Shown here one piece after another: positions 41,889 through 60,895 of a DNA stretch of 61,281 nt; the stretch's first letter is position 1; the number at the start of each line of letters is the position of its first letter. A program made the translations under genes and the position numbers. Source of the DNA: a virus. Taxonomy: Duplodnaviria; Caudoviricetes. Location of the stretch: positions 1 through 61,281 of the IMG/VR virus record IMGVR_UViG_3300030098_004783; one strand, 5' to 3'. Below the pieces are notes generated by a model. The model did no database searches, was not told the origin of the DNA, and worked only from the letters and a program-made list of their open reading frames with translations.

Positions 41889-42354
41889 TTTCTTCTACCT
41901 CTATGTCTATTATTTCTGGTTGTTTCTTCCACGTTACGTCTAAGTCACCATCTTCGCCTTTAAGCTCCTTTAGAAGGTCTCTAGCAGCTCCAATACTGTC
42001 CTGTACTATAGTGGTATTACGTGCACGTTGTAAGTAATTGAGTACGTACTCATTCATTTTTCGCATACGTTCGTTAGTCGTTTCAAAATTAAGAAGTTCG
42101 TCTATGCTCTTATCATACGACCAAGAATCATAACGTTCTAATTGCATTAACATTGCAGCAACGCGGCTGGTTTCGATAATGTTCAAAGATAAGCCAGGGT
42201 CCTGGTCAAGTTCGCATAAGTAAAACTTATAGCGCTCATAATCTTCAGGAACTTGTTTAATTTTCTCTACTAACGACAATGGATTGTCCATTGTAAGTGC
42301 GTTAACAATCTTGTACTTTTTCAAACCGTGCTCTTTGTTAGGCATAGCTACCAT
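41878..42354 (-). CDS. Probable terminase small subunit
   Basis: First gene of the late operon; helical; N-terminal NKEHGL; C-terminal EIIDIEVEE. Confidence 0.5.
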   Translation of the reverse strand: MVAMPNKEHGLKKYKIVNALTMDNPLSLVEKIKQVPEDYERYKFYLCELDQDPGLSLNIIETSRVAAMLMQLERYDSWSYDKSIDELLNFETTNERMRKMNEYVLNYLQRARNTTIVQDSIGAARDLLKELKGEDGDLDVTWKKQPEIIDIEVEENDK

Positions 42355-42549
42355 ATATATATATTTGGAACTATATAAGTCTATTGGTATATGTCCTATT
42401 ATATCTATCTCATATGTTTGTTATCTATACAAAACAGGTTTGAAAATTTTTACTCGCCTCTGAACTCACCTATGTACGTGAAATGAAGGTTATCGAGGAC
42501 CGATGGAACGCGGGCATAACAAGAAGAGTATCAACAAATTTTTTGCTAA

Positions 42550-42579
42550 GTGGGTTTTGTTTCCCTCACAGAAACCCAC
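42550..42579. repeat. Inverted repeat in the divergent intergenic region
   Basis: GTGGGTTTTGT ... ACAGAAACCCAC. Confidence 0.5.
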
Positions 42580-42599
42580 GTTCTAAGCACGGATTAAGT

Positions 42600-42613
42600 T
42601 AAAATCTTTATAA
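42600..42613 (+). promoter_or_regulatory. Archaeal BRE-TATA promoter of the first early operon
   Basis: AAAATC-TTTATAA about 25 nt upstream of the start of a structured leader. Confidence 0.55.
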
Positions 42614-42631
42614 GCAGTTAGCTACTGTGGA

Positions 42632-42757
42632 TATAGCGAAAGCAGATGGCCCCATTCGGAGAATGGAGCAGTAAGTAAAGGGCATCAAAATGAGTCCCTC
42701 GAACACGGCCATACCCTCAGACCAAAAATGATTAAAGACATTGGGCTTTCGACTATA
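42632..42757 (+). ncRNA. Putative multibranched 5' leader RNA
   Basis: Nested pairings TATAGCGAAAGC/GCTTTCG(A)CTATA, ATGGCC/GGCCAT, CCATTC/GAATGG, AATG/CATT; ends 4 nt before GGAGG. Confidence 0.55.
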
Positions 42758-42774
42758 GAACGGAGGAAAACCAT

Positions 42775-43182
42775 ATGACCAAAAGTCTACAAGCAGAAGT
42801 CAAGAAGTTAACTAAAGAACTTAATATTCTTAAGGGAAAAGTTAACAATCTTGAGGGACACGTTGAAGCTCACGGTAAGACCCTTGAGGGGGACTTTATG
42901 AGAGCTGACAAAAACGTGAAGAAGAGAGGCCGTAAAAGTAAGAAGTCATCGTCTAAAAAACGTGTGATGGATACTGATGGCCTCTACTGTTGCACTAAGT
43001 GTAAGTTAGATGATTATTCATCTGACAAGTGGAAGAAGAAATTCGTTGGTAATATTCGAGTCTTTAGGGGCAAGAATTCCAAAAAGAATGCTTCAGAACA
43101 TCACTCTTTGCAAAAGGGCGCTGGCAAAGTCGGACATACAGCCAAACTGTATTCCACTGTGTTGGCCAAGCAGAAGAAATAA
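42775..43182 (+). CDS. Early protein: coiled coil, basic linker and possible Cys/His zinc site
   Basis: GGAGG RBS; heptad N-terminus; YCCTKC...HH...H. Confidence 0.75.
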   Translation: MTKSLQAEVKKLTKELNILKGKVNNLEGHVEAHGKTLEGDFMRADKNVKKRGRKSKKSSSKKRVMDTDGLYCCTKCKLDDYSSDKWKKKFVGNIRVFRGKNSKKNASEHHSLQKGAGKVGHTAKLYSTVLAKQKK

Positions 43183-43269
43183 ATAAGTAATTATTTGTTT
43201 CCATAAGTCAAGCCTGTGAAACTAACAACATCCCCATATCAGAAATGATTAACTGAGGATGAGGCACGG

Positions 43270-43299
43270 TATCCTGAGGCAAGATGTAAAACTGCCTCA
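43270..43299 (+). ncRNA. Compact H-type pseudoknot motif, copy 1
   Basis: TATC-CT-GAGGCA-A-GATG-TAAAAC-TGCCTC. Confidence 0.6.
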
Positions 43300-43347
43300 C
43301 ATCCGCTCATAGTCTTATGCTCCGGCATAGACGGGTAGGAAAAAAAA

Positions 43348-43527
43348 ATGTCAGAAGAAACAACATTTTGTCCTATATGTGGTAGTGAAAAAATATCACG
43401 TTTAGGAGGGCTTGATTCAGTTGGATTTTATTTCGATAAATTCCAATGTAGGACCTGTGGCTATAAGATGGAGGGCCACAAAGTGTATCTATCCTCGATA
43501 GATATAGAGACGGAGTTGATAAAATGA
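43348..43527 (+). CDS. 59-aa zinc-ribbon protein (not in ORF track)
   Basis: MSEETTFCPICGS...FQCRTCGY; ATGA coupling to the next gene. Confidence 0.75.
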   Translation: MSEETTFCPICGSEKISRLGGLDSVGFYFDKFQCRTCGYKMEGHKVYLSSIDIETELIK

Positions 43528-43760
43528 AAAGAGGACTAAGAAAATATGTATTACCTGACGGCAAAGTATATTATCTAAACAATGATTACAAGACCGGCGG
43601 AAAATACGAAACCAAAAATGGAAGACCAATATACGATGTTCTTCACAGATTCGAGGACGGAAAGAATGTAGAATACTTCAAAAAGGCCAAAGAAGTGACT
43701 GCTTGGAGAACATTCAACGTGAAAGACATCAAGGGCAAACTATTGGAGTTAGACGAATGA
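43524..43760 (+). CDS. Hypothetical protein
   Basis: GGAG RBS; ATGA overlaps at both ends. Confidence 0.7.
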   Translation: MKRGLRKYVLPDGKVYYLNNDYKTGGKYETKNGRPIYDVLHRFEDGKNVEYFKKAKEVTAWRTFNVKDIKGKLLELDE

Positions 43761-43933
43761 GAAGAAGACATATGCCTAGGCCAGTGATACCACATACTAT
43801 GAAAGCTCAACAGCAGACAGTATGTGGTTGGAATCTATCTGCACACGAATATGCTGCCACTCAGAATAGAAAGTGGCGACACGTGAACTGCAAGAGATGC
43901 TTGGATATGAGAGACAAAGGGGGTGAAGACTAG
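43757..43933 (+). CDS. 58-aa H..CG..CxxC zinc-finger protein (start revised)
   Basis: MRRRHMP...H...TVCG...VNCKRC; ATGA overlap. Confidence 0.65.
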   Translation: MRRRHMPRPVIPHTMKAQQQTVCGWNLSAHEYAATQNRKWRHVNCKRCLDMRDKGGED

Positions 43934-44107
43934 GTAGGCCATCGGGCCCTCCGTTCTGTAGTTACTTATTTTTATCCATAGCCTATTGCACACCCACTCG
44001 CGCGCCCGCGCGCCTGCGCGCAGGGCCTTGACGATAAAAAGTCTCCTACGTGAGACCTCCCGCACACTTGCGTCAGGAACTCGCATTCGGGAATCACTCC
44101 AAGCTCA

Positions 44108-44165
44108 CGGAGGTGTAGACACACGTGGCCTTGACGTCGTCTATTCCAAAGCTTTATATAGAACC
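44108..44165 (+). promoter_or_regulatory. Strong early promoter, copy 1 (upstream palindrome, BRE and TATA)
   Basis: CGGAGGTGTAGACACAC...CTATTCCAAAGCTTTATATAGAACC; 51/58 identical to 45368..45425. Confidence 0.8.
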
Positions 44166-44183
44166 GTCGTTTCTGTGCTGACG

Positions 44184-44807
44184 GTGACAAATGTGAAAAC
44201 GAACACAGACACACAGAAGCTTGAGCACATACCTACACGTATGCTCAAAGCCGAGCTTGAACGTCGTGATAACGGCAGAACATACGCAGACGTATACGAA
44301 CGTTGCGGAGTTAGTGACGAGCATAAAGACCTGTTCGACGAGGTCGTATATGCGATATGCACAGAGGGAAAGACCATCACGGAGGTTTCCACACCTACCC
44401 GTGCAGGGTTCATACACGGTAATGCGAAGAATTGGGTTCGCAACGCAGGAAACCTACGTGGGTTCAGGGAACTTTGTGGTTCCCACACACCTACGGATTC
44501 GACCACATTCGAAGCACAACCTATGTCCGTGCCTGAGAACGTATGCAGAACCTACCTCGAGTCACGTAGGAAGGCAGGAAACGGCTTTACGACCACAATG
44601 ACGATGGTCGAGACAGGCACGTATAAGGGCAATCCCTTTGGGATTGTGCAGAATACGAACAGCAAACGCTGGGTTATCGGACAGGTGACTAAGCTCGACA
44701 AGGTCGTAGCCATACCTATGACACGTGGAGCCTACAAAAACGTAGACAAGGAGACCAAAGGTCAACGTATGGTATGCGAAATACCTGTGTTCGACCCTCA
44801 AGGTTAA
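44184..44807 (+). CDS. Hypothetical early protein, probably leaderless (start revised to GTG 44184)
   Basis: In-frame GTG 31 nt after the first T of the TATA; the upstream part of the track ORF crosses promoter and GC-repeat sequence. Confidence 0.7.
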   Translation: MTNVKTNTDTQKLEHIPTRMLKAELERRDNGRTYADVYERCGVSDEHKDLFDEVVYAICTEGKTITEVSTPTRAGFIHGNAKNWVRNAGNLRGFRELCGSHTPTDSTTFEAQPMSVPENVCRTYLESRRKAGNGFTTTMTMVETGTYKGNPFGIVQNTNSKRWVIGQVTKLDKVVAIPMTRGAYKNVDKETKGQRMVCEIPVFDPQG

Positions 44808-44821
44808 GCACACACACCTAA

Positions 44822-44849
44822 CTACCTGAGCACGTAGGGAAACTGCTCA
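44822..44849 (+). ncRNA. Compact H-type pseudoknot motif, copy 2
   Basis: CTAC-CT-GAGCA-C-GTAG-GGAAAC-TGCTC; starts 15 nt after the stop codon. Confidence 0.6.
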
Positions 44850-44875
44850 CTACGTTCATAGACGTGCGTAGGGGC

Positions 44876-44900
44876 GGGGCGAAGCCCCTTATTATCTTTT
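44876..44900 (+). terminator. Hairpin plus T-rich tract, probable terminator
   Basis: GGGGC-GAA-GCCCC followed by TTATTATCTTTT. Confidence 0.5.
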
Positions 44901-44904
44901 ATCC

Positions 44905-45367
44905 ATACGTGCGTAGGGTGTCACACGCGCCTACGCGCGTAGATTTCATCATCAGCAGGGCCTACGTGCGTATACGTGCGTATGTGAACGTAAAGAGGCT
45001 CTCTCGTCTACGTGCGTATACGTATGTATGCGAACGTTAGTGCTGGGGGTCAGATGTTCTTATACGTGCGGACGGATATTAGAGAGAATAAGTGCTGTTG
45101 CTGATACGTATACGTATATTACGTATGTATATACATATATGAACATATACGAACATCTACGTATAAGAACATCTACGAACGTATGAGAGAGAGAGGGGCT
45201 ATACACATACGTATGAGAACATAGAACATATATGTATATATATATACGTAGAAGTATGTCCTCTAATAACACAGATGCTATGTGTTTATAGCGTGGGTCT
45301 CGTGCGTGTGTGTCGCGGGTGTGACGTGCGGGTGATGTGGGGGTGTGTGTGGGGGTGTGTCACGGGT
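44905..45367. repeat. Non-coding low-complexity tract of alternating purine-pyrimidine repeats ending in a G-rich segment
   Basis: Repeated TACGTGCGTA, TATACGTA and GAACAT units, (TA)n, then GGG/GGGGG runs separated by GT repeats. Confidence 0.75.
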
Positions 45368-45425
45368 CGGAGGTGTAGACACACACGGCTTCAACATCCT
45401 CTATTCCAAAGCTTTATATAGAACC
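45368..45425 (+). promoter_or_regulatory. Strong early promoter, copy 2
   Basis: Direct repeat of 44108..44165, 1260 bp downstream; ATG 33 nt after the first T of the TATA. Confidence 0.8.
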
Positions 45426-45445
45426 CCAACTCTGAGCTTGGTAAG

Positions 45446-45910
45446 ATGTTTCGAAGTGAAGCGTTGAGGGATATCTCATCCCCGTGTGAGCAAGTCGGTG
45501 ACACTCTCCCTGAGTGTGCACGGGCTACGGCAGGGTCTCCTCACCCTGTCCGCCCATTCAGTTGGGCAATCGCCGAACAATACGCATTGTCTACGGATGA
45601 TGTGTTAGCGTGGCGAAGTGCGTGGTGTTCGTATAGGAATGCGTATAACCACGAAGAACCAGCCGTGCCAAACGAGGAGTTGGCAACGTATTCACGTGAG
45701 TCCCCATATCACGTGCAACATATACGTATGGCAGGAAAGTATGCGGATTCGATGGGCAACTATCACAAGGCCTACGCAAGTGACAGGACATCGAACCCAC
45801 TTGACCTCACAAACGCATCACTACGTGACTTCACGATAGCGATGGCGAAGGATGATAAGGCAGGTATCCTACGTGCCTTTGAGTATGCAGGATGGGACAC
45901 AAAGGAGTGA
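45446..45910 (+). CDS. Hypothetical early protein (probably leaderless)
   Basis: ATG at the expected distance from the TATA; first gene of a coupled series. Confidence 0.7.
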   Translation: MFRSEALRDISSPCEQVGDTLPECARATAGSPHPVRPFSWAIAEQYALSTDDVLAWRSAWCSYRNAYNHEEPAVPNEELATYSRESPYHVQHIRMAGKYADSMGNYHKAYASDRTSNPLDLTNASLRDFTIAMAKDDKAGILRAFEYAGWDTKE

Positions 45911-45914
45911 AAAT

Positions 45915-46214
45915 ATGAACACAAACACAGACATAGATATGAGCATAGATGACGACTTCTACGGAGACGTAGATTTAACACAGGAAGAACGTGATATGAT
46001 ATACGAGGACAGCCTCGTAGGACGTGCGTATGATGAGCATCAGGATTGGAAGGATGAAGAATCCCTACGTGAGTTCTGCAAACCATACGTAAATTGGGCA
46101 AACGATTGGCACAACACAGGCAAGGCTTGGCTACACAATACACGTATGCAAGTTCGTGCCGACAAAGTGAACGAAGCAAAGGCCATACGCAAGTTATTCG
46201 GATGTGACCTATGA
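45915..46214 (+). CDS. Hypothetical acidic protein (start revised to MNTNTD)
   Basis: AAGGAGTG RBS. Confidence 0.7.
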   Translation: MNTNTDIDMSIDDDFYGDVDLTQEERDMIYEDSLVGRAYDEHQDWKDEESLREFCKPYVNWANDWHNTGKAWLHNTRMQVRADKVNEAKAIRKLFGCDL

Positions 46215-46426
46215 GCTGGATTGAGGTCACCGTGCGTTTGCACGAAGATGAGGTGAAGCTACTTCCTATGTGCCTGACTGACGATGGCACGTATGAGGGA
46301 ACATTGGCGAACGGTATAATCGCACAGGTTATACGTGGGGCTAAGAAGGTGAACCCCAAAGGAGAGCTTGTGTATTCATACGTATACGATAGGGTCTACG
46401 AACATCTGGAGGATGAGAAAGAATGA
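46211..46426 (+). CDS. Hypothetical protein
   Basis: ATGA overlaps at both ends. Confidence 0.65.
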   Translation: MSWIEVTVRLHEDEVKLLPMCLTDDGTYEGTLANGIIAQVIRGAKKVNPKGELVYSYVYDRVYEHLEDEKE

Positions 46427-46596
46427 GCAGACGTAGGTCAGGTGCACGGACACCATACGAGAACTACGAGCTACCCAAGTCCAGCGAGAAGGGGGAACCC
46501 TTCATCGATTGGAACGAAGTCATCAAAAACGTGCGATTAAACCCACGTGGGAAACCTGTGCGTGTGATACGCAAAAAGAAGGGGGCCAAAAATTGA
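46423..46596 (+). CDS. 57-aa basic protein (not in ORF track)
   Basis: MSRRRSGARTPYENYELPK...IRKKKGAKN; GGAGG upstream and ATGA overlap. Confidence 0.65.
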   Translation: MSRRRSGARTPYENYELPKSSEKGEPFIDWNEVIKNVRLNPRGKPVRVIRKKKGAKN

Positions 46597-46605
46597 GATG
46601 TTTAC

Positions 46606-46649
46606 GGTTAATTCAAACCTCTTCACAAAGTGAAGAGTTTGAATGAACC
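46606..46649. other. Long hairpin upstream of the amidoligase gene
   Basis: ATTCAAA(C)CTCTTCAC-AAA-GTGAAGAG-TTTGAAT, flanked by GGTT/AACC. Confidence 0.6.
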
Positions 46650-46673
46650 TAACCAAAACCAAATGGAGAAAAT

Positions 46674-47987
46674 ATGGAATCAGAAAACGAAACCGATGAC
46701 ATCATTTGTGATGTCTGCCGTGACTCACCAGCTACTGCTGTGGAATGTCTCGAAGGCACAGATACTGACATATGTGACTGCTGTCTCGATGAACTACCTA
46801 CGGATGAGTGGAGTGGTGAGCTTGTCAGAGAAATCGTAGCCCACGTAGATGGCTACGGTGTAGGACGGGATACACTTGACGATGAGTGTTTCACCTGTGA
46901 TTGGAGTGGGGAGTATGGATTCAATGAGAATGCAGTTGAACTCACCTGCGGAGACATCGTTAATCGTGAGTATTACAGCGATGAGCTGTTCTACTGTCAC
47001 GATTGTGATTATCGAGGACATATCGATGATGCACAATGGATAGACCAGATTGAAGCATACGTATGTGATGACTGTTCGTGTGAACATAGGCACAGAGCTG
47101 ACCGTTGGCACAACAGATTCGCAAAGATTGTTTCCAATACGTTCAGTAAGTTCCCTGTCCGCAATTACGTGGGCATTGAGTTCGAAGCTGAAGAGGGAGA
47201 ACCTATACGTGATGTGATACCATCTGCCCTGTATAACAAAATCGCAGAGGCTAAAGACGATGGTTCTCTGAACTATGGCACGGAGTATGTGACACACCCA
47301 ATGCGTGGTGATGACATAGCTAACACGATAGATGAGATGTGCGATATGTTCGCATCAAATGGTTGGACATTAGGAACCAACGTAGGTTGGCACTTCCATT
47401 ATGATATGGACAGCTTGAGCATCAACCGTCAGAAGAACGTATGGAAGGCTATGCAGAGATTTGATAACCTAATACGTATGTCTGATGACTTCGGATATTT
47501 CAGAGATATGCAGAGGTCGTATGCCACAGGATGGACAGAACAATACGTAGCTTGGGCATCACAATGGGCGATGGATAAGAAGCGTGACTATGATTACAAC
47601 GCACATAGGAGACAGGCAACACGTGGCTCTGAGATGGGTAGATATGCGTGGCTTAATTGGTCTCCGATGGGGAACATAGATAATAAACGTGTAGAGATAC
47701 GATTGTATAGACCTATTACATACAGACGTAATTACACAGACGCTACAAGCTGGTCACGTAGTGCATACTCATCAGTAGCACAGGACTACAAACTATTCAT
47801 TCAATTTTGGAATGAGTTTATACGCAAGTCTGCGTATCGACCACGTTCGTTGAGATTCAGAGATGATGCACACGGACTGATTGATATGACAGAATTTGCA
47901 GGACAATTTTCACCAGAGGTGAAGGATTGGTTGATTACAAACCACAATACACATATAACACGACAGGAGGTGATAAACAATGTGTGA
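46674..47987 (+). CDS. Putative amidoligase (glutamine-synthetase-like COOH-NH2 ligase) with N-terminal Cys-rich zinc repeats
   Basis: VGIEFE, DDGSL, EYVTHP, GWHFH, RYAWLN, VEIR motifs; several CxxC pairs in the acidic N-terminus. Confidence 0.8.
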   Translation: MESENETDDIICDVCRDSPATAVECLEGTDTDICDCCLDELPTDEWSGELVREIVAHVDGYGVGRDTLDDECFTCDWSGEYGFNENAVELTCGDIVNREYYSDELFYCHDCDYRGHIDDAQWIDQIEAYVCDDCSCEHRHRADRWHNRFAKIVSNTFSKFPVRNYVGIEFEAEEGEPIRDVIPSALYNKIAEAKDDGSLNYGTEYVTHPMRGDDIANTIDEMCDMFASNGWTLGTNVGWHFHYDMDSLSINRQKNVWKAMQRFDNLIRMSDDFGYFRDMQRSYATGWTEQYVAWASQWAMDKKRDYDYNAHRRQATRGSEMGRYAWLNWSPMGNIDNKRVEIRLYRPITYRRNYTDATSWSRSAYSSVAQDYKLFIQFWNEFIRKSAYRPRSLRFRDDAHGLIDMTEFAGQFSPEVKDWLITNHNTHITRQEVINNV

Positions 47988-49248
47988 GATACAATTCGTA
48001 ATGAGCGATACGTTGGGCAATGACAACGTTAATAACTTCATTGAAATGTTGAGTAAAGGTTCTAGGTCGAACGATGACGCAACAGGTATATTCAGTAGTT
48101 CATACCAATGGAAAGTTGGTAAGGCCTACGAGGATTTGAAAGATAAGAAAGATGACAGCATCAGACACGTGCTGTCCGCACTCCCAAGCAATTGGCTCGT
48201 GGGTCACAATAGACTTGCGACACAGGGTAGTGAGACTAATAACGAGAACAATCATCCGTTCTCGAATGATACTTGCACGATAGTGCATAATGGTATCATA
48301 GGTAATGACGATACGTTGAAGGCACAGTATGGCTTCGACTATAAAGCAGAGACAGATAGTGCGATAGTCCCTGCGTTAATTGACCATTACATACGTGATG
48401 GTAAGGATGAGATAGACGCTATCAAAGAAAGTGCAGAAGAACTAACAGGTTCGTATTCGATATTTGTATTTATGCACAGCACACAGAACCTATACTACCT
48501 CAAAAATAATTCGACATCATTTTATATGATGAAAACTCTCGATGCAAACGATAACGTAAGCATCTATGGTAGCACATCCAAGTCAAGCTTGGAGGATATG
48601 TCGTATATAAAAAGCGATGGACTGTTTGGTTCCGACCTATTTAAAGCACGACACATAACTACACCAGAGGGTGGTGTTATATATCACGTAGTATATAAAG
48701 GAGATAACGGAATGGATATTGTTAATGCAGGTGAATTTACACCTCAATCCTACGTATATAAAGGAGGAACTACGTATTACGGTAGGGGTGCCTACTCTTA
48801 TGGTGGTAATACATACTATGATTGGGATTCACTCGATGATACAGATTACGTAGGAGATAGCTGTTCGCTATCGAAGAATGAAACCAAACGTAAGGAACGT
48901 GCAGAATCTTCGGAAGCTATGAACGAGATACTAAAGGAGTTCGATACTAACGTAGATGATGTGTTCGAAGGAGTAGTGACTGACATAGAAAACTTCTGCG
49001 TATACGATGAGGATATAATATTTAGTGGACAATTCACGAATGATATTATGGATGCGGTATCTACGTATTCAAGTAGACATCAACAGATAGTTCTACGTGA
49101 CGTTCCTACTATGTATGGAACTTACTTGGAAAATTATTTAGATGCAACTGCGTGGATATCTACGGATGATGTAGGTAAAGGCGAGGACATTAGCAACTAT
49201 ACAGTTAAATACCAAGCACTTGTTAAGTATATAGAGGACAACCAATGA
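47980..49248 (+). CDS. Class II (Ntn) glutamine amidotransferase with acidic C-terminal extension
   Basis: N-terminal Met-Cys, GHNRLATQG, NNHPF, VHNGII, ETDS. Confidence 0.9.
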   Translation: MCEIQFVMSDTLGNDNVNNFIEMLSKGSRSNDDATGIFSSSYQWKVGKAYEDLKDKKDDSIRHVLSALPSNWLVGHNRLATQGSETNNENNHPFSNDTCTIVHNGIIGNDDTLKAQYGFDYKAETDSAIVPALIDHYIRDGKDEIDAIKESAEELTGSYSIFVFMHSTQNLYYLKNNSTSFYMMKTLDANDNVSIYGSTSKSSLEDMSYIKSDGLFGSDLFKARHITTPEGGVIYHVVYKGDNGMDIVNAGEFTPQSYVYKGGTTYYGRGAYSYGGNTYYDWDSLDDTDYVGDSCSLSKNETKRKERAESSEAMNEILKEFDTNVDDVFEGVVTDIENFCVYDEDIIFSGQFTNDIMDAVSTYSSRHQQIVLRDVPTMYGTYLENYLDATAWISTDDVGKGEDISNYTVKYQALVKYIEDNQ

Positions 49249-49925
49249 AAACGTTAGCACTTAATCCTGATAAAAACGCAGACGATAACATATCAGACGC
49301 AGTCGATTTCTTTACACGACATTGTCACGGTGAGAAAGAACTTACCGGATTATTTGCATTCGAAGATAGAGACCCATACGCACTATACCATCCACGATGG
49401 AATGGTAGACCACTATTACCTGAGAAATTAGCGTCAGCTATTGATAGGTGGTGTGATAAAGGTAAAGGATGGGCGATACTACATAGCCGTTCATACCCAC
49501 GTGGAACTAATTCACGTAGAGAACGTATGCCGTTGAGGTTATCTACTTACCAATACTTCTTTCACATAGGTGGATATGGTAGCCAATCATTGTGGAATGA
49601 AGTGCAACGTTCACGTAGAGTAAAGAGGCCAACTAATATGGCGGTATATAATGCGTGGATACAATCACAAATATCAGATGATTTTCTTAACAGATGGAGA
49701 GACTATCACAACTTAAGCGATGAGGGTAATGAACGCACACGTTCATTCTGTTCATTCGTATGGGATAATGGTATGATAAAGAAATACAATATGTATGAAG
49801 ATGATTACGAGGATAATAGTCCGACACGATATAAGGTGTATAGTGTAGAGGGATACGACAATGATAACACATTGACTTATCGCCCTGCGTTTACTATGCA
49901 ACCAGAATGGGATGGTGTGCAATAA
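49245..49925 (+). CDS. Hypothetical protein
   Basis: GAGG RBS; ATGA coupling to the GATase gene. Confidence 0.7.
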   Translation: MKTLALNPDKNADDNISDAVDFFTRHCHGEKELTGLFAFEDRDPYALYHPRWNGRPLLPEKLASAIDRWCDKGKGWAILHSRSYPRGTNSRRERMPLRLSTYQYFFHIGGYGSQSLWNEVQRSRRVKRPTNMAVYNAWIQSQISDDFLNRWRDYHNLSDEGNERTRSFCSFVWDNGMIKKYNMYEDDYEDNSPTRYKVYSVEGYDNDNTLTYRPAFTMQPEWDGVQ

Positions 49926-50461
49926 TGGGTGCGTATCCATTTAGTCAGGCAGTCAAATGGCCTGAACATATGTGCGAACATTGTAGTAATATAATCGGCC
50001 CTGTCGATGTGTTCGGTAATAATCCAGACGATAATAAATGCGAGGGTGCGGGTATGAAACTGAAACCACAATGGGGTGGTAAACTCGAAGGACAGGCAGA
50101 TGATGACCCTACGCAACACGCATTCATAGATATATCATATGGTATACGTGACCATACAGACTCTGAGAAATTTAGAAAGTTCGTTATGGAAACTAAACGT
50201 ATGGCTGTTCCTATGTGTGAACTTGGTAAACAATTACCAAAGATACACGTGCAAAGACAGTCAGACTGTGAGTATCCAGAGATTAGAAAGAAGATGGATA
50301 TGGATGGAGTCCCACGTATGGTGGACATAGAAGGACATAAATTCTGCGGACATTGTCACGTCAAGCAGACGTATCAGGGCTACGCAGATTACTCGTGGCG
50401 TTCGACAGCAGAGACCTGCACGAACCCTGATTGTATAATGAACGGAGGTAAAGAACAATGA
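49925..50461 (+). CDS. Cys-rich hypothetical protein (start revised to MGAYPF)
   Basis: TAATG coupling; CEHC, CGHC, CTNPDC. Confidence 0.7.
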   Translation: MGAYPFSQAVKWPEHMCEHCSNIIGPVDVFGNNPDDNKCEGAGMKLKPQWGGKLEGQADDDPTQHAFIDISYGIRDHTDSEKFRKFVMETKRMAVPMCELGKQLPKIHVQRQSDCEYPEIRKKMDMDGVPRMVDIEGHKFCGHCHVKQTYQGYADYSWRSTAETCTNPDCIMNGGKEQ

Positions 50462-50601
50462 GTAAACACACAGATGAACTGCTTGAAGCAGTTCAGGAGA
50501 TATCCGCAATCATTTACTATCAGTCGAATTTAAAAGAGCAGGATAGATGGTTAGCAGATATAATGGAGAAAGGTATATGGCTCCCAGAGGATGACGACTG
50601 A
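50458..50601 (+). CDS. 47-aa hypothetical protein (not in ORF track)
   Basis: MSKHTDELLEAVQEISAII...; GGAGG RBS; coupled at both ends. Confidence 0.65.
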   Translation: MSKHTDELLEAVQEISAIIYYQSNLKEQDRWLADIMEKGIWLPEDDD

Positions 50602-50735
50602 TGGAAGATATATGCGATTTCATTGACGGTAGTGGCATAGTAGAATGTCCAGATTGCGGTGAGGTAGTAGAGACCGTAGACGAAGATAAGTGTCCTTACT
50701 GTCACAATGGAAAATATATGTATGGAGATATATAA
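50601..50735 (+). CDS. 44-aa CPxCG zinc-finger microprotein (not in ORF track)
   Basis: ECPDCGE...KCPYCH; TGATG coupling; abuts the next ATG. Confidence 0.75.
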   Translation: MEDICDFIDGSGIVECPDCGEVVETVDEDKCPYCHNGKYMYGDI

Positions 50736-51083
50736 ATGAAACAAAACAAAATATTAACAGAGTTTCTCGATATGATAGACGAAGCCCATAAGATAGAGGC
50801 ATCTAACATAGACATAAAGAAGATACTCTCACCTGCACAGTTCAGGCAATTTACAGAAATGGAAGAGGTTATTAACAATATGTTTTCAGCTAATAACCTA
50901 CACGAAGGCATACGTAAGACAATAGACGGTGCCAAGCTAAACAATACGCAACAGATAAACGTATTGATTATGCTAAAAATATTTGAAACATTCATCGGTG
51001 CGATGAAGGAGGCTGGTATACAACCCGATACAAGCAGTAGCAATTATGATTTGCCTACTGACTTCGGTGACTTGTATGCCTAA
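50736..51083 (+). CDS. Hypothetical helical protein
   Basis: GGAG RBS; operon continuity. Confidence 0.7.
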   Translation: MKQNKILTEFLDMIDEAHKIEASNIDIKKILSPAQFRQFTEMEEVINNMFSANNLHEGIRKTIDGAKLNNTQQINVLIMLKIFETFIGAMKEAGIQPDTSSSNYDLPTDFGDLYA

Positions 51084-51085
51084 AA

Positions 51086-51131
51086 CACACATAGTAGGTA
51101 AGTTAGTAAACGTACTTACCTACTCTGTGTG
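51086..51131. other. Strong intergenic hairpin
   Basis: CACACA-T-AGTAGGTAAGT / ACTTACCTACT-C-TGTGTG; 17 bp with one mismatch. Confidence 0.65.
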
Positions 51132-51161
51132 GTGATACAAAAAATTAAAGGAGAATTAAAA

Positions 51162-51494
51162 ATGACAAACAACAGATTTAGTAGAATGTCCTCACGTAGT
51201 GGGGGTAATGATAGCTCCGCCAAATCAGGCGGGAACGTTAAGTATAACGTAATTAAGAGTGAACGTGTGGATTGGGAACCAAATAACTTTTTGGAAATAT
51301 CCCACAAGTCATACGATGCTAAGGGTGAGAACTCTGGTAGTGGTGAGTTTTACTCACTATCACGTGGCTACTACGCAACCGGCAACGGTGACGTAGATGA
51401 AGGCACACCTATATACCAGAAGAACCTTACGCTTCCAGCTGACGATAAGTTCCTCGATAGCTTCATCGGTGCATTAGATAAGATATTTTCTTAG
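51162..51494 (+). CDS. PC4/PUR-like single-stranded nucleic-acid-binding protein (start revised to MTNNRF)
   Basis: AAGGAG RBS; beta-beta-beta-beta-alpha pattern NNFLEIS...EFYSLSRGYY...KNLTLP...helix. Confidence 0.55.
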   Translation: MTNNRFSRMSSRSGGNDSSAKSGGNVKYNVIKSERVDWEPNNFLEISHKSYDAKGENSGSGEFYSLSRGYYATGNGDVDEGTPIYQKNLTLPADDKFLDSFIGALDKIFS

Positions 51495-51502
51495 GTGCAT
51501 AG

Positions 51503-51667
51503 ATGAGAAGCAAAGATGTTCGCACAGGTATGGTTCACGAGATGCATAGTATAACTACTGCATATGAGAACCTACGCACAGTAATGAGTAAGCCTTCACC
51601 TATGAGTAGGTGGAGTGAGGTTAAGGATGCTCTTGAGCGTCTATCATCTGCTATTTACGGACAGTGA
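51503..51667 (+). CDS. 54-aa hypothetical protein (not in ORF track)
   Basis: MRSKDVRTGMVHEM...; AGGTG RBS. Confidence 0.55.
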   Translation: MRSKDVRTGMVHEMHSITTAYENLRTVMSKPSPMSRWSEVKDALERLSSAIYGQ

Positions 51668-51739
51668 ATACGTAGATAAATACACCCTTGCAATACACGT
51701 AGGATATTGTATCTTAGTATCAATAGTGGTGTTATCAAT

Positions 51740-51967
51740 ATGAGATATCATATAGCTTATTCAAATCAGATACGTTTGAAGGATGGCCGAGTACTCACGT
51801 ACGATGACGTTGAACTTCACGAAGAGACACACGAGTACGACGTAGGCACGAGAGAGAAACACAATACACCACGTAAGGGTGATGAGCTGGAGTATCTCGA
51901 AGATTTTATGTCAGGCAACTTTGTTGTCATCCTCGAGAAAGGAGACGTAGAACAATTAAGTGATTAA
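51740..51967 (+). CDS. Hypothetical acidic protein (start revised to MRYHIA)
   Basis: GGTG RBS. Confidence 0.6.
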   Translation: MRYHIAYSNQIRLKDGRVLTYDDVELHEETHEYDVGTREKHNTPRKGDELEYLEDFMSGNFVVILEKGDVEQLSD

Positions 51968-52607
51968 GGTGAACCGATTACATATACGATACGAGCCGAG
52001 AGTAGGCACTAAGTCTGGAGGGGGATACAATAACACTTCCTCTGGACTGCACGAAGTGAGGCACGTAGATGATGTAGTTGAGTTTGTATTTCTTAATGAA
52101 ATATACGTGAGGTTCGGTAGCGTTGATTCACTCAACGTCTACCCTCACCCACCTTATGATGATGACCTACGCAACCACGATGTATCTGAATTACAGATGG
52201 TAGCGGACAATAGGTTCGCACGTGTCATCGACAATCTTTTTAGAAAAGAATGTATTGATGACAACAACATACACGAGTATGTATTTAGAATTTACAGACG
52301 ACCTACGTATGGTCGAACTGATATACCTGCGTATTGGGATATAACTATACGTGAGCATAATATCGATTTGCCACGTTACGCACATAGCCCTGCTCCTACG
52401 GAGATGTACGTAGGTGAGTTCAAGGATACGTGGACTGACGAACAACGTGAGGTTGTGCGTGAGTTCCGTGCGTACGCTGTGAGTTTCCCGCGTTCGCTGA
52501 CTGAGAATCAATTCATCGAGTTCTATATGCAACGGATAAAAGATAGCCCTTCCCGCGCCGATGCTCGTAGAATATGGAAACATAGGGCAGAAATGGGATT
52601 AGTATAA
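51960..52607 (+). CDS. Hypothetical protein
   Basis: Long ORF in operon orientation. Confidence 0.7.
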   Translation: MIKVNRLHIRYEPRVGTKSGGGYNNTSSGLHEVRHVDDVVEFVFLNEIYVRFGSVDSLNVYPHPPYDDDLRNHDVSELQMVADNRFARVIDNLFRKECIDDNNIHEYVFRIYRRPTYGRTDIPAYWDITIREHNIDLPRYAHSPAPTEMYVGEFKDTWTDEQREVVREFRAYAVSFPRSLTENQFIEFYMQRIKDSPSRADARRIWKHRAEMGLV

Positions 52608-52609
52608 CA

Positions 52610-53053
52610 ATGGTAAATACAAAAAAAGATGTAAAGTTTGGCCTTAAAAAAGAAGAGGAAGCTATTAAATGCTTCTCTGACAATGCTCCCAAAGGTAAAT
52701 GGAATGAATTTAAAAAGATGAATGAGTTTAATCACTTCGATTATTGTGCTCATTCTGCTGACCGTAAGCGTTCTGCGTTCGTAGAGATTAAATCTCGACG
52801 TAATGCTAAGGACGCGTATGAGGACACTATGGTGCCCTCTGTAAAGATTGAGAAGGCTTTAAACCTGATTCGTTTAGGACATAAAGTTTATTTTGTATTC
52901 AATTTTACTGACGGTATATTCTTTATTGACCTCGAAAAGGCCACCGTACGCTTTGGAAAAAGCGCACGTACAGATAGAGGTGCATTGGAATTAGGACACT
53001 ACGCATTTATACGCGTAGATTTATTAACAAAAATAGGAGAAAAAAATGAGTAA
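52610..53053 (+). CDS. PD-(D/E)xK nuclease
   Basis: E...HFDY...FVEIKSR; VYFVFNFTDG. Confidence 0.8.
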   Translation: MVNTKKDVKFGLKKEEEAIKCFSDNAPKGKWNEFKKMNEFNHFDYCAHSADRKRSAFVEIKSRRNAKDAYEDTMVPSVKIEKALNLIRLGHKVYFVFNFTDGIFFIDLEKATVRFGKSARTDRGALELGHYAFIRVDLLTKIGEKNE

Positions 53054-53438
53054 TGTAACAGCAAGAAAATATAAAGAGTTAGAAAGCCGAATCGAAACAA
53101 TCGAAAAGTGGCTAGATGAAAAGACCGACGTCTTAACGCAACTTGGTATGTTAGAAAACTACAGCTTCCTGATAAAAGCAGTTAGAGAATACGTTGAAAG
53201 ACAAGAACAAATGGGACAACAAATGCAACATATGCAAGGACAGTTCCAGACTAACATTGCTTCTGTAGAAGAGTTTATGAAAGACAACAAACTCGAAAAG
53301 AAATGGGAAAAATTCTTAGATAAGAAACAAAAAGAAGCTGAAGAAGAAATGAAAAAGCAACAAGCTATGGCGGAAGGTCCAGATATAAAAAGCGCAAGTG
53401 AAATTATAGCAGAACAGCGGGGAATGACTAAGGAGTAG
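53046..53438 (+). CDS. Coiled-coil hypothetical protein
   Basis: E/K/Q-rich heptads; AGGAG RBS. Confidence 0.7.
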   Translation: MSNVTARKYKELESRIETIEKWLDEKTDVLTQLGMLENYSFLIKAVREYVERQEQMGQQMQHMQGQFQTNIASVEEFMKDNKLEKKWEKFLDKKQKEAEEEMKKQQAMAEGPDIKSASEIIAEQRGMTKE

Positions 53439-53441
53439 ATT

Positions 53442-53537
53442 ATGTGGCAAATCTCTGATATAGGTAGCTGTATAGAATGTACAGAATACACAGCTATAGA
53501 TGAATACAATACTTGTGAAATATGTAGTATATTATGA
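53442..53537 (+). CDS. 31-aa CxxC...CxxC microprotein (not in ORF track)
   Basis: MWQISDIGSCIECTEYTAIDEYNTCEICSIL; AAGGAG RBS; ATGA overlap with the ATPase gene. Confidence 0.65.
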   Translation: MWQISDIGSCIECTEYTAIDEYNTCEICSIL

Positions 53538-54883
53538 TTCAAAAACGAAAGAGTAATCTCAATGACTTACACCGATACTTCGAAAGTTGTTTTGTGTTAG
53601 GTAAAAGAGACCCTATATTAGAAAACCACGAAACTCGTATACTCGCCTTATTATTATGGGCGATTGCTGGTAAATCAGTATGTATTAGAGGTGAGTCTGG
53701 CAGTGCTAAAACTAAAATATTAAACGCAGTAACTGCATTGATATATGGTGACGAAGGACTCGCGGGACGCAATCCCAGTGTTTTATGGTTGAATTCATCT
53801 TCAGCCAAAGGACATCTTACTGAGGATAGTGCTCACGTTATAACACAATCTAAGCGTTGTGTTATTCCTGAGCTACAAAATATATTGACATCTCAAAATC
53901 TAGAAGCTATGATTAAGCTTTGGATGGAAGACCGTCCGTATATATACAGTAAGAACGAAATGGGTAGACGTACTGTCAGGATAATACTTGACCCTAAACC
54001 AATATTGACGAACCTTGCCGATGGAAACGAAAGTTTACCACAGCTCCCTGTTGAAATGAGACGTAGAGTAATAAGTTTGCCTACGTTCTCTAGTAAGGAG
54101 TTAAACGAAAAAGTTCACCATCTAAAGGCAGTAAGTCGTATGTTACCAGACGATAAGCTAGTGAAATTATCACGTATAGAAACCAGTGGCTTAAAAAATC
54201 AAATAAAAGAAGCTATGGGATTAGATAAACGTGTTATAAATCCAGGAGCAGACGTCATACGTACGACTATACCAGCAATATATACAATGTCAAACACATT
54301 CATAGATTATTACTTTGATGTTATAGAAGCAGTTACTAAGTTTCACCATAGAGAAAGAGCACAGGATTTGGATTATATTTATTCGACTCCTGCGGACAAT
54401 TTCATTGGTTTCTTATTGGCCGGTAGTATCTTCAGAGATATGTCAATAGGAATCAATCCGATTGGGAAAGAAATTATAGATTTCGTACCAAAAGCGGAAG
54501 TGTGGGGAGATTTAGTAACAGAAAGCGAGTCAGATGCAGTTCATATAGACGAAATCACTGACCACCTTTCAACAAAAGGAATAAACCGAACTAAGAAAAT
54601 GATTGAATATACAATGGAACGTTTAGTTGATACTAATTTTGTAAGGAGATTAAATAAAACAAACAAGTATTATAGAACGCAGGACTTTGATTTTAGTAGG
54701 TCAGTAGATTGGAAGGGTTTAGTAGATGCTTGTATAACGAATATGGAGAGTAATTCACCACATATTGCAGAAGAATATAAGAAGGATGATTTACATATGT
54801 ATACAGACCCATTTACAGGCGAACATAAGAATATACCTATGACATTACAAGTATATGGAGGACATATAGATGAAGGAGTATGA
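53534..54883 (+). CDS. AAA+ ATPase, MCM-like replicative helicase candidate with C-terminal winged helix
   Basis: Walker A GESGSAKT, SSAKG, CVIPE (Walker B position), arginine finger EMRRR, C-terminal wHTH-like segment. Confidence 0.65.
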   Translation: MIQKRKSNLNDLHRYFESCFVLGKRDPILENHETRILALLLWAIAGKSVCIRGESGSAKTKILNAVTALIYGDEGLAGRNPSVLWLNSSSAKGHLTEDSAHVITQSKRCVIPELQNILTSQNLEAMIKLWMEDRPYIYSKNEMGRRTVRIILDPKPILTNLADGNESLPQLPVEMRRRVISLPTFSSKELNEKVHHLKAVSRMLPDDKLVKLSRIETSGLKNQIKEAMGLDKRVINPGADVIRTTIPAIYTMSNTFIDYYFDVIEAVTKFHHRERAQDLDYIYSTPADNFIGFLLAGSIFRDMSIGINPIGKEIIDFVPKAEVWGDLVTESESDAVHIDEITDHLSTKGINRTKKMIEYTMERLVDTNFVRRLNKTNKYYRTQDFDFSRSVDWKGLVDACITNMESNSPHIAEEYKKDDLHMYTDPFTGEHKNIPMTLQVYGGHIDEGV

Positions 54884-55004
54884 TGGTAGATGCCAATACT
54901 GTTTAGATTGGCCACAAGAATGCGATTGTAGACCAAACCTAATACAAGGGGGACTATTTTATAAGAATAGTTACTGGCCTATAAGGGAGATAGACCCACG
55001 ATGA
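54870..55004 (+). CDS. 44-aa CxxC..CxC microprotein (not in ORF track)
   Basis: MKEYDGRCQYCLDWPQECDC...; GGAGG RBS; ATGA coupling downstream. Confidence 0.6.
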   Translation: MKEYDGRCQYCLDWPQECDCRPNLIQGGLFYKNSYWPIREIDPR

Positions 55005-55234
55005 TAACATACTGCAAAGGATACAAGCATCCAGACGATATAAAGGTATGTATAAATGACCACGTTATAACATTTAAAGAAGTAGCAGAAGTGATTATAC
55101 AACTGATAAAAAATGAAGACAATATATATCCGAAACCCAGATTTAGAGGAGGAGATATGTTAATTGATTTTTTAAATGAATGTATGGAAATGAGAGATGT
55201 TCCTGATGAATTATTAAGGAAGTATAAATTATGA
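55001..55234 (+). CDS. Hypothetical protein
   Basis: Coupled ORF with GGGAG RBS. Confidence 0.65.
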   Translation: MITYCKGYKHPDDIKVCINDHVITFKEVAEVIIQLIKNEDNIYPKPRFRGGDMLIDFLNECMEMRDVPDELLRKYKL

Positions 55235-55326
55235 GTGATATCATACCATTAGAAATTCCTTTAAATAGTCAGATACGAGTATATATACTATGTGGCATAG
55301 TTAATATAATATGGAGGGTAATATGA
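55231..55326 (+). CDS. 31-aa hydrophobic microprotein
   Basis: MSDIIPLEIPLNSQIRVYILCGIVNIIWRVI; ATGA overlaps at both ends. Confidence 0.5.
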   Translation: MSDIIPLEIPLNSQIRVYILCGIVNIIWRVI

Positions 55327-55436
55327 ATTGTACCTTATGTAAATGGAAACTATCACCACAGTATGTTAGATACCGAGATGTCAATGGTAATCCCTATTGT
55401 AGGGAATGTTATATACAGATAGGAGGAATACTGTGA
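55323..55436 (+). CDS. 37-aa CxxC...CxxC microprotein (not in ORF track)
   Basis: MNCTLCKW...NPYCRECY; GGAGG RBS. Confidence 0.7.
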   Translation: MNCTLCKWKLSPQYVRYRDVNGNPYCRECYIQIGGIL

Positions 55437-55606
55437 TAATAATAGAAGATTTGATATGGCACCTTGAATCTTTAAATGAAGATTTAGAAGATAAAGGTCT
55501 AGAAGTTACTATTGACTTCTTAAGATATATGAGAAGAAACATAGCAGGTAGAGGAACTTTATCAGGTTTTCTATCAGCAGATGAGTATAGGGAGATAAAA
55601 ATATGA
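55433..55606 (+). CDS. Hypothetical protein (start revised to GTG 55433)
   Basis: AGGAGG RBS and GTGA overlap. Confidence 0.6.
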   Translation: MIIIEDLIWHLESLNEDLEDKGLEVTIDFLRYMRRNIAGRGTLSGFLSADEYREIKI

Positions 55607-56208
55607 AAGAGATAATGGAAAAGTACAGCACGACATTCTTTGAATGTGTACAAGAATGGCCCAAAGAAATTAGAGAAGATATATATAAACTATATGCTTA
55701 TCTGAGGGTCATAGACGAAATGGTAGAAGGTGATGCTGATTGGAACGACTTTAAAAAATGGAGAAAGATAATAGAACAATTCTACGAAGTGTGTGATAGA
55801 CACGAGTTCGAGGGACAGTGGCTTATAGATTTTCACCAAGCTATGCTGACTGATTTAAAAACTAAAGAACACACAACTACATCTATGATAGAATATTGTA
55901 AAGGGTCGGGTGAATCGGTTGGACTAATGGTTTCAAGAATACTAGGATGTTCACCAGCTGGTGATGAATACGCTAGAGCATTAGGTAGAGCATACCAAAT
56001 AATAAATTTCGTGAGAGATTACGACGACGATGTATCTAAAGGTTATCACTATATTGGTGAAGACAAAAACTTCTACATTCGTATGTTTATTAACGAGCTA
56101 ACGTTTGCTTCTACAGGTTTACAGTTTATACCTAAACACTTACGTGGACCAATAGTCGAGGCGAACAAAAAATATCTACAGGTGGCAGATGATAATAAAG
56201 GGTTTTAG
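55603..56208 (+). CDS. Squalene/phytoene synthase family protein (head-to-head prenyl diphosphate synthase)
   Basis: STTF, LYAYLRVIDEMVE, AMLTDL, EYC...SVGLM, ARALGRAYQIINFVRDYDDD...GYHYI. Confidence 0.88.
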   Translation: MKEIMEKYSTTFFECVQEWPKEIREDIYKLYAYLRVIDEMVEGDADWNDFKKWRKIIEQFYEVCDRHEFEGQWLIDFHQAMLTDLKTKEHTTTSMIEYCKGSGESVGLMVSRILGCSPAGDEYARALGRAYQIINFVRDYDDDVSKGYHYIGEDKNFYIRMFINELTFASTGLQFIPKHLRGPIVEANKKYLQVADDNKGF

Positions 56209-56518: not shown

Positions 56519-56537
56519 TGTATTTTAATGAAGCCGA

Positions 56538-57622: not shown

Positions 57623-57625
57623 GAA

Positions 57626-59878: not shown

Positions 59879-59894
59879 ATATAGAAGGTGCTAT

Positions 59895-60887: not shown

Positions 60888-60895
60888 GAGAAAAT

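Follow-up and report, generated by a model that had tools for sequence, protein, structure and literature searches.

Enrichment of the CpG-centred palindrome YACGTR across the early gene block of an uncultured marine virus

Why should one short palindrome crowd into a single block of unrelated viral genes? The question is raised by the IMG/VR virus record IMGVR_UViG_3300030098_004783 (Duplodnaviria; Caudoviricetes). Its whole contig of 61,281 bases, with a guanine-plus-cytosine (GC) content of 0.383, was analysed and is called the window below; the public runs that contain this sequence are marine metagenomes, and marine samples cover 96-99% of its sampled words. The original prediction, made from the bare sequence, held that the tetramer ACGT is strongly over-represented at 44000-52600 and forms a DNA-level code superimposed on coding sequence. 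The regional excess proved real. The window holds 317 ACGT, and a likelihood scan placed 121 of them in a dense segment of 8,500 bases at 44001-52501 (14.2 per kb), versus 196 in the 52,781 bases outside (3.7 per kb). Recounting returned exactly the earlier manual figures for three subsegments (11 in 44221-44820, 18 in 44821-45300 and 18 in 51661-52500), and the GC-richer composition claimed for 44-47 kb was also found (0.47-0.52). The early block rich in ACGT spans 44000-52607; it begins at the first early promoter and closes with an open reading frame (ORF) of 215 amino acids (aa). The last dense site, at 52445, lies within this ORF, and the dense zone stops at its stop codon. Beyond the block (52608-54883) ACGT occurs at 5.7 per kb, and the PDDEXK_14 endonuclease gene that comes first there has background density.

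The enriched word is longer than ACGT. With Y for pyrimidine and R for purine, YACGTR has 68 sites in the region and 45 outside it, a 9.3-fold enrichment, whereas RACGTY (11 versus 59, 1.1-fold) is not enriched; one-sided flank matches are enriched 2.8-fold. The base 3' of ACGT is A or G in 83% of the region's sites and the base 5' is T or C in 63%, which bears out the earlier remark that T or C mostly precedes the tetramer. The two non-palindromic forms are balanced (TACGTG 19, CACGTA 17). A symmetric flank effect combined with such a balance would be expected if double-stranded DNA is read by something with two-fold symmetry. Outward from the CpG the favoured half-site is a pyrimidine-purine (YR) step (TA 3.8-fold, CA 3.6-fold, TG 3.1-fold), and TACGCA (13.8-fold) and CACGCA (5.8-fold) therefore join the word set. 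Alternating hexamers with one CpG are enriched 6.2-fold, compared with 1.8-fold for alternation alone and 1.7-fold for one CpG alone. Alternating runs of at least 8 bases occur at 10.6 per kb in the block versus 3.3 per kb elsewhere, and runs of at least 10 bases at 3.6 versus 0.85 per kb. The original prediction was therefore right about ACGT as the core, but the full word is YACGTR or the broader YRCGYR. The density of YACGTR is 4-14 per kb in the block versus 0-4 per kb elsewhere. Within coding sequence it recurs roughly every 80-150 bases in each of the early ORFs, at 6.7 per kb across 7 kb. The periodic spacing for which a check had been proposed did not emerge: the coding sites are unphased, with a coefficient of variation of 1.1 for the gaps, no peak at 10-11 bases and only a weak 3-base signal.

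How much of this excess follows from local composition and codon usage? Base composition predicts 31.5 ACGT for the region, dinucleotides 51.7 and trinucleotides 105.1, versus 121 observed; given the last value, ACG and CGT are enriched in their own right. A total of 65 ORFs were called by hand, 16 of them early (44241-52607), 16 middle and 29 late, and four small ORFs at 42775-43933 were kept out of these groups. The early ORFs contain 95 ACGT, distributed over the frames ACG-T (13), xAC-GT (35) and xxA-CGT (47), the last with CGT as an arginine codon. Within-gene synonymous codon shuffles yielded 53.5 ± 4.9 ACGT, and shuffles that also keep the dinucleotides at codon junctions yielded 77.8 ± 3.8, with none of 100 reaching 95. 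For YACGTR, 50 were observed in the early ORFs versus 20.6 ± 3.3 (codon-only) and 36.0 ± 3.0 (junction-preserving; 0 of 100 shuffles reach 50). Under the junction-preserving null, ACGT is not in excess in middle genes (55 versus 53.0) or late genes (131 versus 122.2), and YACGTR shows no excess in either group (9 versus 13.2 and 34 versus 31.5). Since junction-preserving shuffles return 78 of the 95 ACGT, local codon and junction usage reproduces the larger part of the excess in coding sequence and leaves a remainder. The residue in the early ORFs is modest (+17 ACGT, +14 YACGTR), and YACGTR makes up nearly all of the residual ACGT. The excess thus does not vanish when local codon and dinucleotide usage is controlled.

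Two simple sources of the word were rejected. Plain codon preference was one: CGT represents 42% of early arginine codons versus 19-21% elsewhere, but the surplus is limited to the A-CGT context (47 of 65 early CGT codons), and outside ACGT the CGT share of arginine codons is 17% in early genes versus 10-12% in the others. The second was a by-product of palindrome avoidance. Shuffles barred from creating new GATC, CATG, GTAC, CTAG or CCGG leave the YACGTR expectation at 20.0 and 35.1 under the two nulls, versus the 50 observed.

The highest word density of the block lies in untranslated DNA. A conserved iteron region of 638 bases (44808-45445) contains 19 ACGT (29.8 per kb) and 13 YACGTR (20.4 per kb). 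Its repeats comprise two tandem copies of TACGTGCGTA 10 bases apart, 2.5 copies of ATACGT, 2.9 copies of the 10-base unit ACATATACGA and 4.5 copies of a G/T-rich 12-mer, and it also holds an (AT)9 tract and the perfect palindrome CTACGCGCGTAG. Aligned with three relatives, the region has a mean column identity of 84%. A promoter element of 58 nucleotides (nt) is present in two plus-strand copies that are 88% identical and form the sole exact repeat of at least 25 nt in the genome; its pattern matches twice versus 0.05 expected. Copy 1 (44108-44165) stands upstream of the first early gene, ORF1, and reads TTGACG-N17/18-TTATAT/TATATA or as a B recognition element (BRE) with a TATA box. Copy 2 (45368-45425) ends about 25 nt before the start codon of ORF2; its T/A box is kept in all three relatives, with TTGACA 17 nt upstream of the box. 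A sigma-70 reading (TTGACG or TTGACA, 17-18 bases, TATATA or TATAAA) is available for copy 1 and for all three relatives, and from its sequence the element would read equally well as a sigma-70 promoter or as BRE/TATA. A terminator-like GC hairpin followed by a T-run (44870-44889, plus strand) lies 3' of ORF1. As in an iteron or operator array, repeated words in untranslated DNA adjoin a promoter and are kept in relatives.

Two further observations concern this region. CTACGCGCGTAG is a perfect 12-base palindrome at 44931-44942, and its core TACGCGCGT is invariant in the four-sequence alignment. We take this core to resemble those of telomere-resolution sites of linear-plasmid prophages; a telomere resolvase family was not found among the window ORFs. 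Among the contig pieces listed, those of two of three DNA runs break off at 44901, one run resumes at 45413, and a third run carries a variant that skips 44817-44862. The repeat region 44901-45413 is variable or hard to assemble.

Is the signal kept in related viruses? Protein-seeded scans of IMG/VR revealed relatives in three clades, and scans for more distant ones with alignments of the terminase and of a conserved 449-aa protein returned the same three clades only. As a check in related viruses had been meant to establish, the ACGT-rich block is present in two of them. In clade a (L001-L004; 78-80% aa identity in a class II glutamine amidotransferase, GATase) the stretch rich in ACGT and YACGTR measures 9-10 kb. 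In clade b (L008/L076 and L035/L077; GATase identity about 63%) ACGT occurs at 11-27 per kb over 8 kb versus 2-10 per kb beyond, and the border lies 1 kb before the gene of the 449-aa protein. GTAC is not depleted in clade b, where it occurs as ACGTAC. In clade c (L021/L043; GATase identity 37-41%, GC about 0.5) ACGT is not in excess, and the words enriched in the early block are TCRYGA and CRCGAA/TTCGYG instead. TCRYGA was counted 35 times there versus 11.3 ± 2.7 under codon-only and 21.7 ± 3.0 under junction-preserving shuffles, compared with once in late ORFs. The untranslated repeat region of clade c consists of TTCRYGAA (15 copies in 5904-7177), and the enrichment in this clade stops at the homologue of the PDDEXK gene. 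The border of the early block falls at the same syntenic place in the window and in clades b and c, and clade a likewise shares the borders of the window's block.

Individual sites are also conserved. Compared with clade a, 74 of 108 aligned ACGT are kept versus 48% of all 4-mers (rank 2 of 138). Compared with clade b, where four-fold sites are only 48% identical, 25 of 51 ACGT positions are shared versus 25.5% for 4-mers taken together (ACGT ranks second of 100; binomial P=2.6e-4). At third positions of codons with a conserved amino acid, identity inside ACGT exceeds that outside (85% versus 71%, P=0.0012, in clade a; 77% versus 55%, P=0.004, in clade b). Both comparisons share the window and are therefore not independent. 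Once stratified by codon, they are only suggestive of selection at synonymous sites. Of the DNA-level code originally proposed, the core is supported: a signal on top of unrelated ORFs that survives codon, junction and forbidden-word controls, is densest in untranslated iterons and is common to relatives. It calls for refinement, in that most of the coding excess (78 of 95) follows local codon and junction usage and the word rides on a shift in GC at third codon positions (GC3) that is independent of ACGT. The accompanying suggestions of first injection, of methylation or decoy roles and of chromatin exclusion are conjectural.

While YACGTR accumulates, other palindromes are missing. GATC and CATG were said to be purged, and each is indeed absent from the whole genome versus about 213 expected. 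GTAC is absent from 42474-51112 (8,638 bases), CTAG has a single site (48062) in the stretch 43930-53112, and there is no CCGG from 43594 to 49345. Under junction-preserving shuffles the early ORFs should hold 25.3 ± 3.6 GTAC and 8.4 ± 2.3 CTAG, versus 5 and 1 observed; the late ORFs are near expectation (GTAC 128 versus 153, CTAG 99 versus 102). The avoidance of GTAC and CTAG is limited to the early block, as in restriction avoidance of the leading-region type. In clade c, GTAC, CTAG, GATC, CATG and AGCT are all absent from early ORFs, versus 18, 6, 17, 0 and 13 in late ORFs. Across the 17 relative loci examined, CATG is absent from all and GATC from 11; GATC is present in late genes of the GC-rich clade c. 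A second palindrome-poor zone at 20340-24355 lies inside a giant Laminin_G_3 gene. GTAC and CTAG are absent there (12.5 expected each), as are CCGG, GGCC and CGCG (3.8 each), TGCA is frequent (33 versus 12.5) and ACGT is ordinary (11 versus 12.5).

We favour, with a probability of roughly 0.4, the reading that YACGTR forms a dispersed array of sites for a sequence-specific protein that binds double-stranded DNA. The array would have its nucleus in the iterons and lie on a block that is probably the first to act and perhaps also the first to enter the cell. A cis-acting double-strand word (YACGTR, or an alternating YR hexamer around one CpG) would mark the early genes. Its reader, probably dimeric, could be a viral early protein, a virion protein or a host factor, which may nucleate at the iterons and then occupy the entire early block. 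Binding might switch off or insulate early transcription, or shield the DNA that is exposed first. The loss of GTAC and CTAG would then be restriction avoidance, limited to DNA that is needed before a viral counter-measure acts, a behaviour with direct precedent in T5 first-step-transfer DNA and in the leading regions of T7-like phages. We infer the existence and identity of the reader, the effect of its binding and the first entry of the block. The gene order, with terminase genes, a variable zone that includes a weak Lar-like match, and outward promoters, is consistent with first entry and no proof of it.

Several results weigh against this reading. Junction-preserving shuffles reproduce most of the coding signal (78 of 95 ACGT, 36 of 50 YACGTR), and the trinucleotide model alone expects 105 of the 121 ACGT. 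Early genes differ in their general composition, with a GC3 of 0.43 outside codons that touch ACGT and many unrelated 4-mers enriched 3-4-fold, and the sites in coding DNA have no spacing preference. Stratification by codon leaves only a weak effect for the third positions inside ACGT, with common odds ratios of 1.61 in the comparison with clade a (P=0.14) and 1.96 in that with clade b (P=0.051). The three clades offer just two word types, too few for testing co-variation with a particular protein. No reader protein was found among the early ORFs, and the structure model of ORF2 was unusable. Finally, the contigs close as circles with arbitrary break points, the ends of the relatives' contigs likewise falling at arbitrary places, and no terminus was seen in the assembled contigs of the public runs, so that a fixed first-entering end is conjectural.

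Could the word be a compositional by-product instead? The early block would then have an oligonucleotide signature of its own (GC3, CpG, and NAC, CGT and ACG codons), whether through translational tuning, through mutation of another kind or because the module has an evolutionary origin of its own. ACGT would be just one of many words swept along, and the iterons would be separate, ordinary regulation. GC3 is 0.42 in early genes versus 0.31 in middle and 0.24 in late genes, the observed/expected ratio of CpG is 1.13 in the block versus 0.81 elsewhere, and CACA, GAGG and GGTG are enriched on the plus strand about as strongly as ACGT. The block has 74-80% nt identity to relatives versus about 91% in its flanks. 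The trinucleotide and junction-preserving expectations, the Poisson-like coding sites and the non-significant codon-stratified test also fit such an origin. However, such a by-product fits poorly with a 9.3-fold enrichment of YACGTR beside unenriched RACGTY, with a residual excess of z 4.6-5.5 under the strictest nulls, with CGT over-use only after A and with a density that peaks in untranslated DNA. The 6.2-fold enrichment of alternating one-CpG hexamers exceeds the product of the CpG and alternation effects, ACGT positions are conserved twice as often as 4-mers generally at near-saturated synonymous divergence, and in a sister clade whose early block is just as rich in GC it is another palindrome that is enriched. 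We consider this explanation unlikely.

Alternatively, YACGTR could be the target of a DNA modification, by host methylation or another base, in which case dense modified sites would mark, protect or time the early block. In its form the word matches Type II recognition sites; YACGTR is the specificity of BsaAI and ACGT that of MaeII. Restriction pressure on this genome is clear from the complete loss of GATC and CATG and the absence of GTAC and CTAG from the block, and the word differs between clades that may have different hosts (GC 0.38 versus about 0.50). Yet none of the 65 hand-called ORFs matched a methyltransferase or other base-modifying family, nothing ties the early amidoligase/GATase gene pair to DNA, and a protective mark offers no obvious reason for accumulating sites. 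The enriched set, which includes TACGCA and CACGCA, is also wider than one specificity. A modification target is, in our judgement, quite improbable.

A structural or mechanical code is a further alternative. Alternating YR tracts with CpG and CpA steps could make the block flexible, or prone to a left-handed or open form, and thereby aid the DNA that is packaged last, ejected first and bent most, or respond to transcription-driven supercoiling. The excess of alternating runs and of alternating one-CpG hexamers and the YR half-site before CpG agree with this, as do clade b, where runs of at least 8 bases occur at 10.75 versus 4.5 per kb, and perfect alternating runs of about 20 bases in the untranslated region. 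But the top words of clade c (TCGCGA, CGCGAA, TCACGA) alternate over at most 4 bases, and its run excess is small (5.3 versus 2.7 per kb). Alternating words without CpG are enriched only 1.8-fold, TGCA, ATAT and TATA are not enriched, and GTAC and CATG, which alternate likewise, are absent. We regard such a code as improbable. An RNA signal, with YACGUR in early transcripts read by a nuclease or an RNA-binding protein that sets message lifetime, is scarcely credible: the block borders do match a run of co-oriented early ORFs that begins at early promoters, but the word is palindromic with its two non-palindromic forms equally common on the coding strand, its density peaks 3' of a terminator-like hairpin and ahead of the second promoter, in DNA that should be little transcribed, and no Rfam family reaches its gathering threshold, the seven matches in 42300-46700 (E ≤ 1) all lying far under gathering scores on low-complexity repeats.

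What would an array of protein-binding sites share with known systems? In phage T5, EcoRI cuts only sites in the first-step-transfer DNA, which also has conserved untranslated repeat regions, according to the part of the report available (10.1101/866236). As far as that part goes, the block studied here resembles T5 pre-early DNA in being an early-gene block of about 8-10 kb with site effects only there (GTAC and CTAG are missing from it alone) and in holding a conserved iteron or repeat region. The same part does not mention a short word across the pre-early ORFs, and no search aimed at such a report was made. No terminal repeat or terminus was found here, whereas in T5 the block forms a long terminal repeat whose injection stop has been mapped, and there is no homology to T5 genes (the terminase is unmatched among 50,697 phage records). 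In Autographiviridae, motifs in the leading region decide sensitivity to Type I restriction, and this region is variable and carries anti-defence genes, as stated in the accessible text of PMC12455610. A variable zone of small ORFs with a weak Lar-like match and the fast-evolving ORF1 head the early block of the window in a similar manner. However, the T7-like case is one of site loss and involves no gained palindrome.

Classical iterons and operators are 17-22 bases long, are confined to a few hundred bases and are bound by their cognate initiator or repressor. The window shares with them short repeats at helical spacing in untranslated DNA near promoters, with an AT-rich tract alongside, and a word that changes between related lineages while the architecture stays constant. 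It differs in that a six-base word runs at 6.7 per kb through 7 kb of unrelated coding sequence. Chi, KOPS, uptake sequences and SeqA-bound GATC clusters are words over-represented genome-wide in cellular chromosomes, where, as may be the case here, a short word is kept dense inside coding sequence by DNA-level selection. Those words are cellular, mostly strand-polar and, except for GATC, non-palindromic, whereas the present one is a palindrome, keeps to a single temporal gene block in a viral genome and is swapped in a sister clade.

Block-limited site avoidance and iteron regions are of known kinds. A clade-specific six-base palindrome across 7-10 kb of unrelated early coding sequence is not known to us as described for any virus, on the basis of a literature search that was not aimed at showing absence. 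One may go further and propose that this virus family writes a clade-specific, CpG-centred palindrome across its whole early block while erasing restriction-type palindromes, which would make the block a self-marked domain. Such a domain might be read whole, by a viral or host factor or through DNA mechanics, and might serve to distinguish, shield or time the DNA that acts first. We hold this wider proposal to be unlikely. Restriction pressure commonly leaves its trace as an avoidance of short palindromes; that a palindrome should accumulate regionally inside coding sequence is unfamiliar. If a reader or a modification exists, YACGTR and TCRYGA in homologous early blocks with shared borders amount to a natural experiment, which allows the study of how a virus marks, protects and times its first-acting DNA and of how far a signal can overlay coding sequence. 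That restriction is decided by the leading region is an idea drawn from cultured T5- and T7-like phages; the block-limited loss of GTAC, CTAG, GATC and AGCT extends it to an uncultured lineage of marine viruses without a close cultured relative.

Which early proteins come into question as readers? At the thresholds used, searches of Pfam, PHROGs and NCBIfam assigned none of the early ORFs to a DNA-binding family. ORF1 (188 aa, 44241-44807, plus strand) is the most divergent gene of the block, with 37-42% aa identity to relatives compared with mostly 61-97% for its neighbours; it has no homologue in clade c and no family match in the same three collections. Such identities would suit an anti-defence gene better than a conserved binder. 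The early ORF at 49245-49925 (29-46% aa identity to relatives) also diverges far faster than its neighbours, and for both genes the rate would be typical of an arms race. ORF2 (154 aa, 45446-45910, plus strand) lies directly 3' of the iterons and contains a conserved segment of 37 residues that is common to clade c. Its 22 homologues found are all close (66-93% identity), and a structure model from a 14-row alignment reached a mean predicted local distance difference test (pLDDT) score of only 43, which is unusable. An ORF at 45915-46214 is confined to the ACGT-type clades, and so is a small basic ORF (57 aa, isoelectric point (pI) 10.8, 46423-46596, plus strand) with 80-91% identity in clades a and b and no match in c. 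A Cys/His-rich ORF (184 aa, 49907-50461, plus strand) was found in clades a and b only. By position or by co-occurrence with the clades, ORF2 and these three ORFs are candidate readers and serve as leads only.

In all three clades, no large feature of the early block is better conserved than a pair of genes for an Amidoligase_2-like protein and a class II GATase (46674-49248; 8726-11263 in L043). The first gene (46674-47987, plus strand; PF12224, E=1.1e-5; phrog_7631) is 40% identical in clade c, and the second (47980-49248, plus strand; PF13522 and PF13537; phrog_4736) is 37-41% identical there. A further ORF of clade c, at 13099-14325, looks amidoligase-like by eye. The available part of a report on Poseidoniales viruses mentions an amidoligase/GATase pair in a lineage without DNA polymerase (PMC11706807). 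The PDDEXK_14 endonuclease gene past the block spans 52610-53053 on the plus strand (PF24579, E=1.7e-12), and its homologue marks the border in clade c. On the other side, a variable zone of four small plus-strand ORFs (42355-43933) lies between the late operon and the early block. When these ORFs were tabulated in 12 relatives, two had one match each, one had none, and that at 43703-43933 had only weak matches (33-45% aa identity) in 8 of the 12. The zinc-ribbon ORF at 43348-43527 has a weak match to the restriction-alleviation family Lar (TIGR03655, E=7.9e-5, 22.9 bits, below the cut-off of 39.6), and the 135-aa ORF at 42775-43182 is strongly basic (pI 10.1) and begins with a coiled-coil-like stretch.

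The remaining genome is arranged around these blocks. The late operon is read on the minus strand from 42354 down to about 3143 and encodes two small ORFs, the large terminase, a candidate portal and capsid, a tape-measure-like protein and two giant Laminin_G_3 proteins. All early genes are directed away from it. Plus-strand genes occupy 42775-61276 and continue through 36-2831; they include the early block, the PDDEXK_14 nuclease, a Cas4-like exonuclease and a family B DNA polymerase (PolB), and further a squalene/phytoene-synthase-like protein, Hsp20, a ribonucleotide reductase (RNR) and a primase-polymerase-like protein. The window contains no tRNA genes. Its ends have no terminal overlap and meet in a gap of about 40 bases between the Hsp20 gene and a complete class II RNR gene. 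The terminase had no match among the phage records searched, its alignment retrieved no relative in 185,579 species genomes, and its clusters in an Atlas look-up comprise viruses and a few Bathyarchaeota. PolB shares no more than about 26% identity with halovirus polymerases and with a single bacterial Pol II record. An archaeal host had been considered from the BRE/TATA and leaderless-start reading of the duplicated promoter; this claim was withdrawn because the promoter is equally sigma-70-like and Shine-Dalgarno sequences are common. A 132-aa ORF on the minus strand (2740-3138), with a short match to the 'Recombinase' domain of serine recombinases (PF07508, E=5e-6), overlaps the 3' end of the primase-polymerase-like gene and may be a fragment. 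Auxiliary-type genes are those for the squalene/phytoene-synthase-like protein (55603-56208), Hsp20 (60896-61276) and a monomeric B12-dependent RNR (36-1583). The last, the class II enzyme, is about 49% identical to roseophage enzymes and 47-51% identical to proteins of Patescibacteria metagenome-assembled genomes (7 loci), the nearest cellular relatives found.

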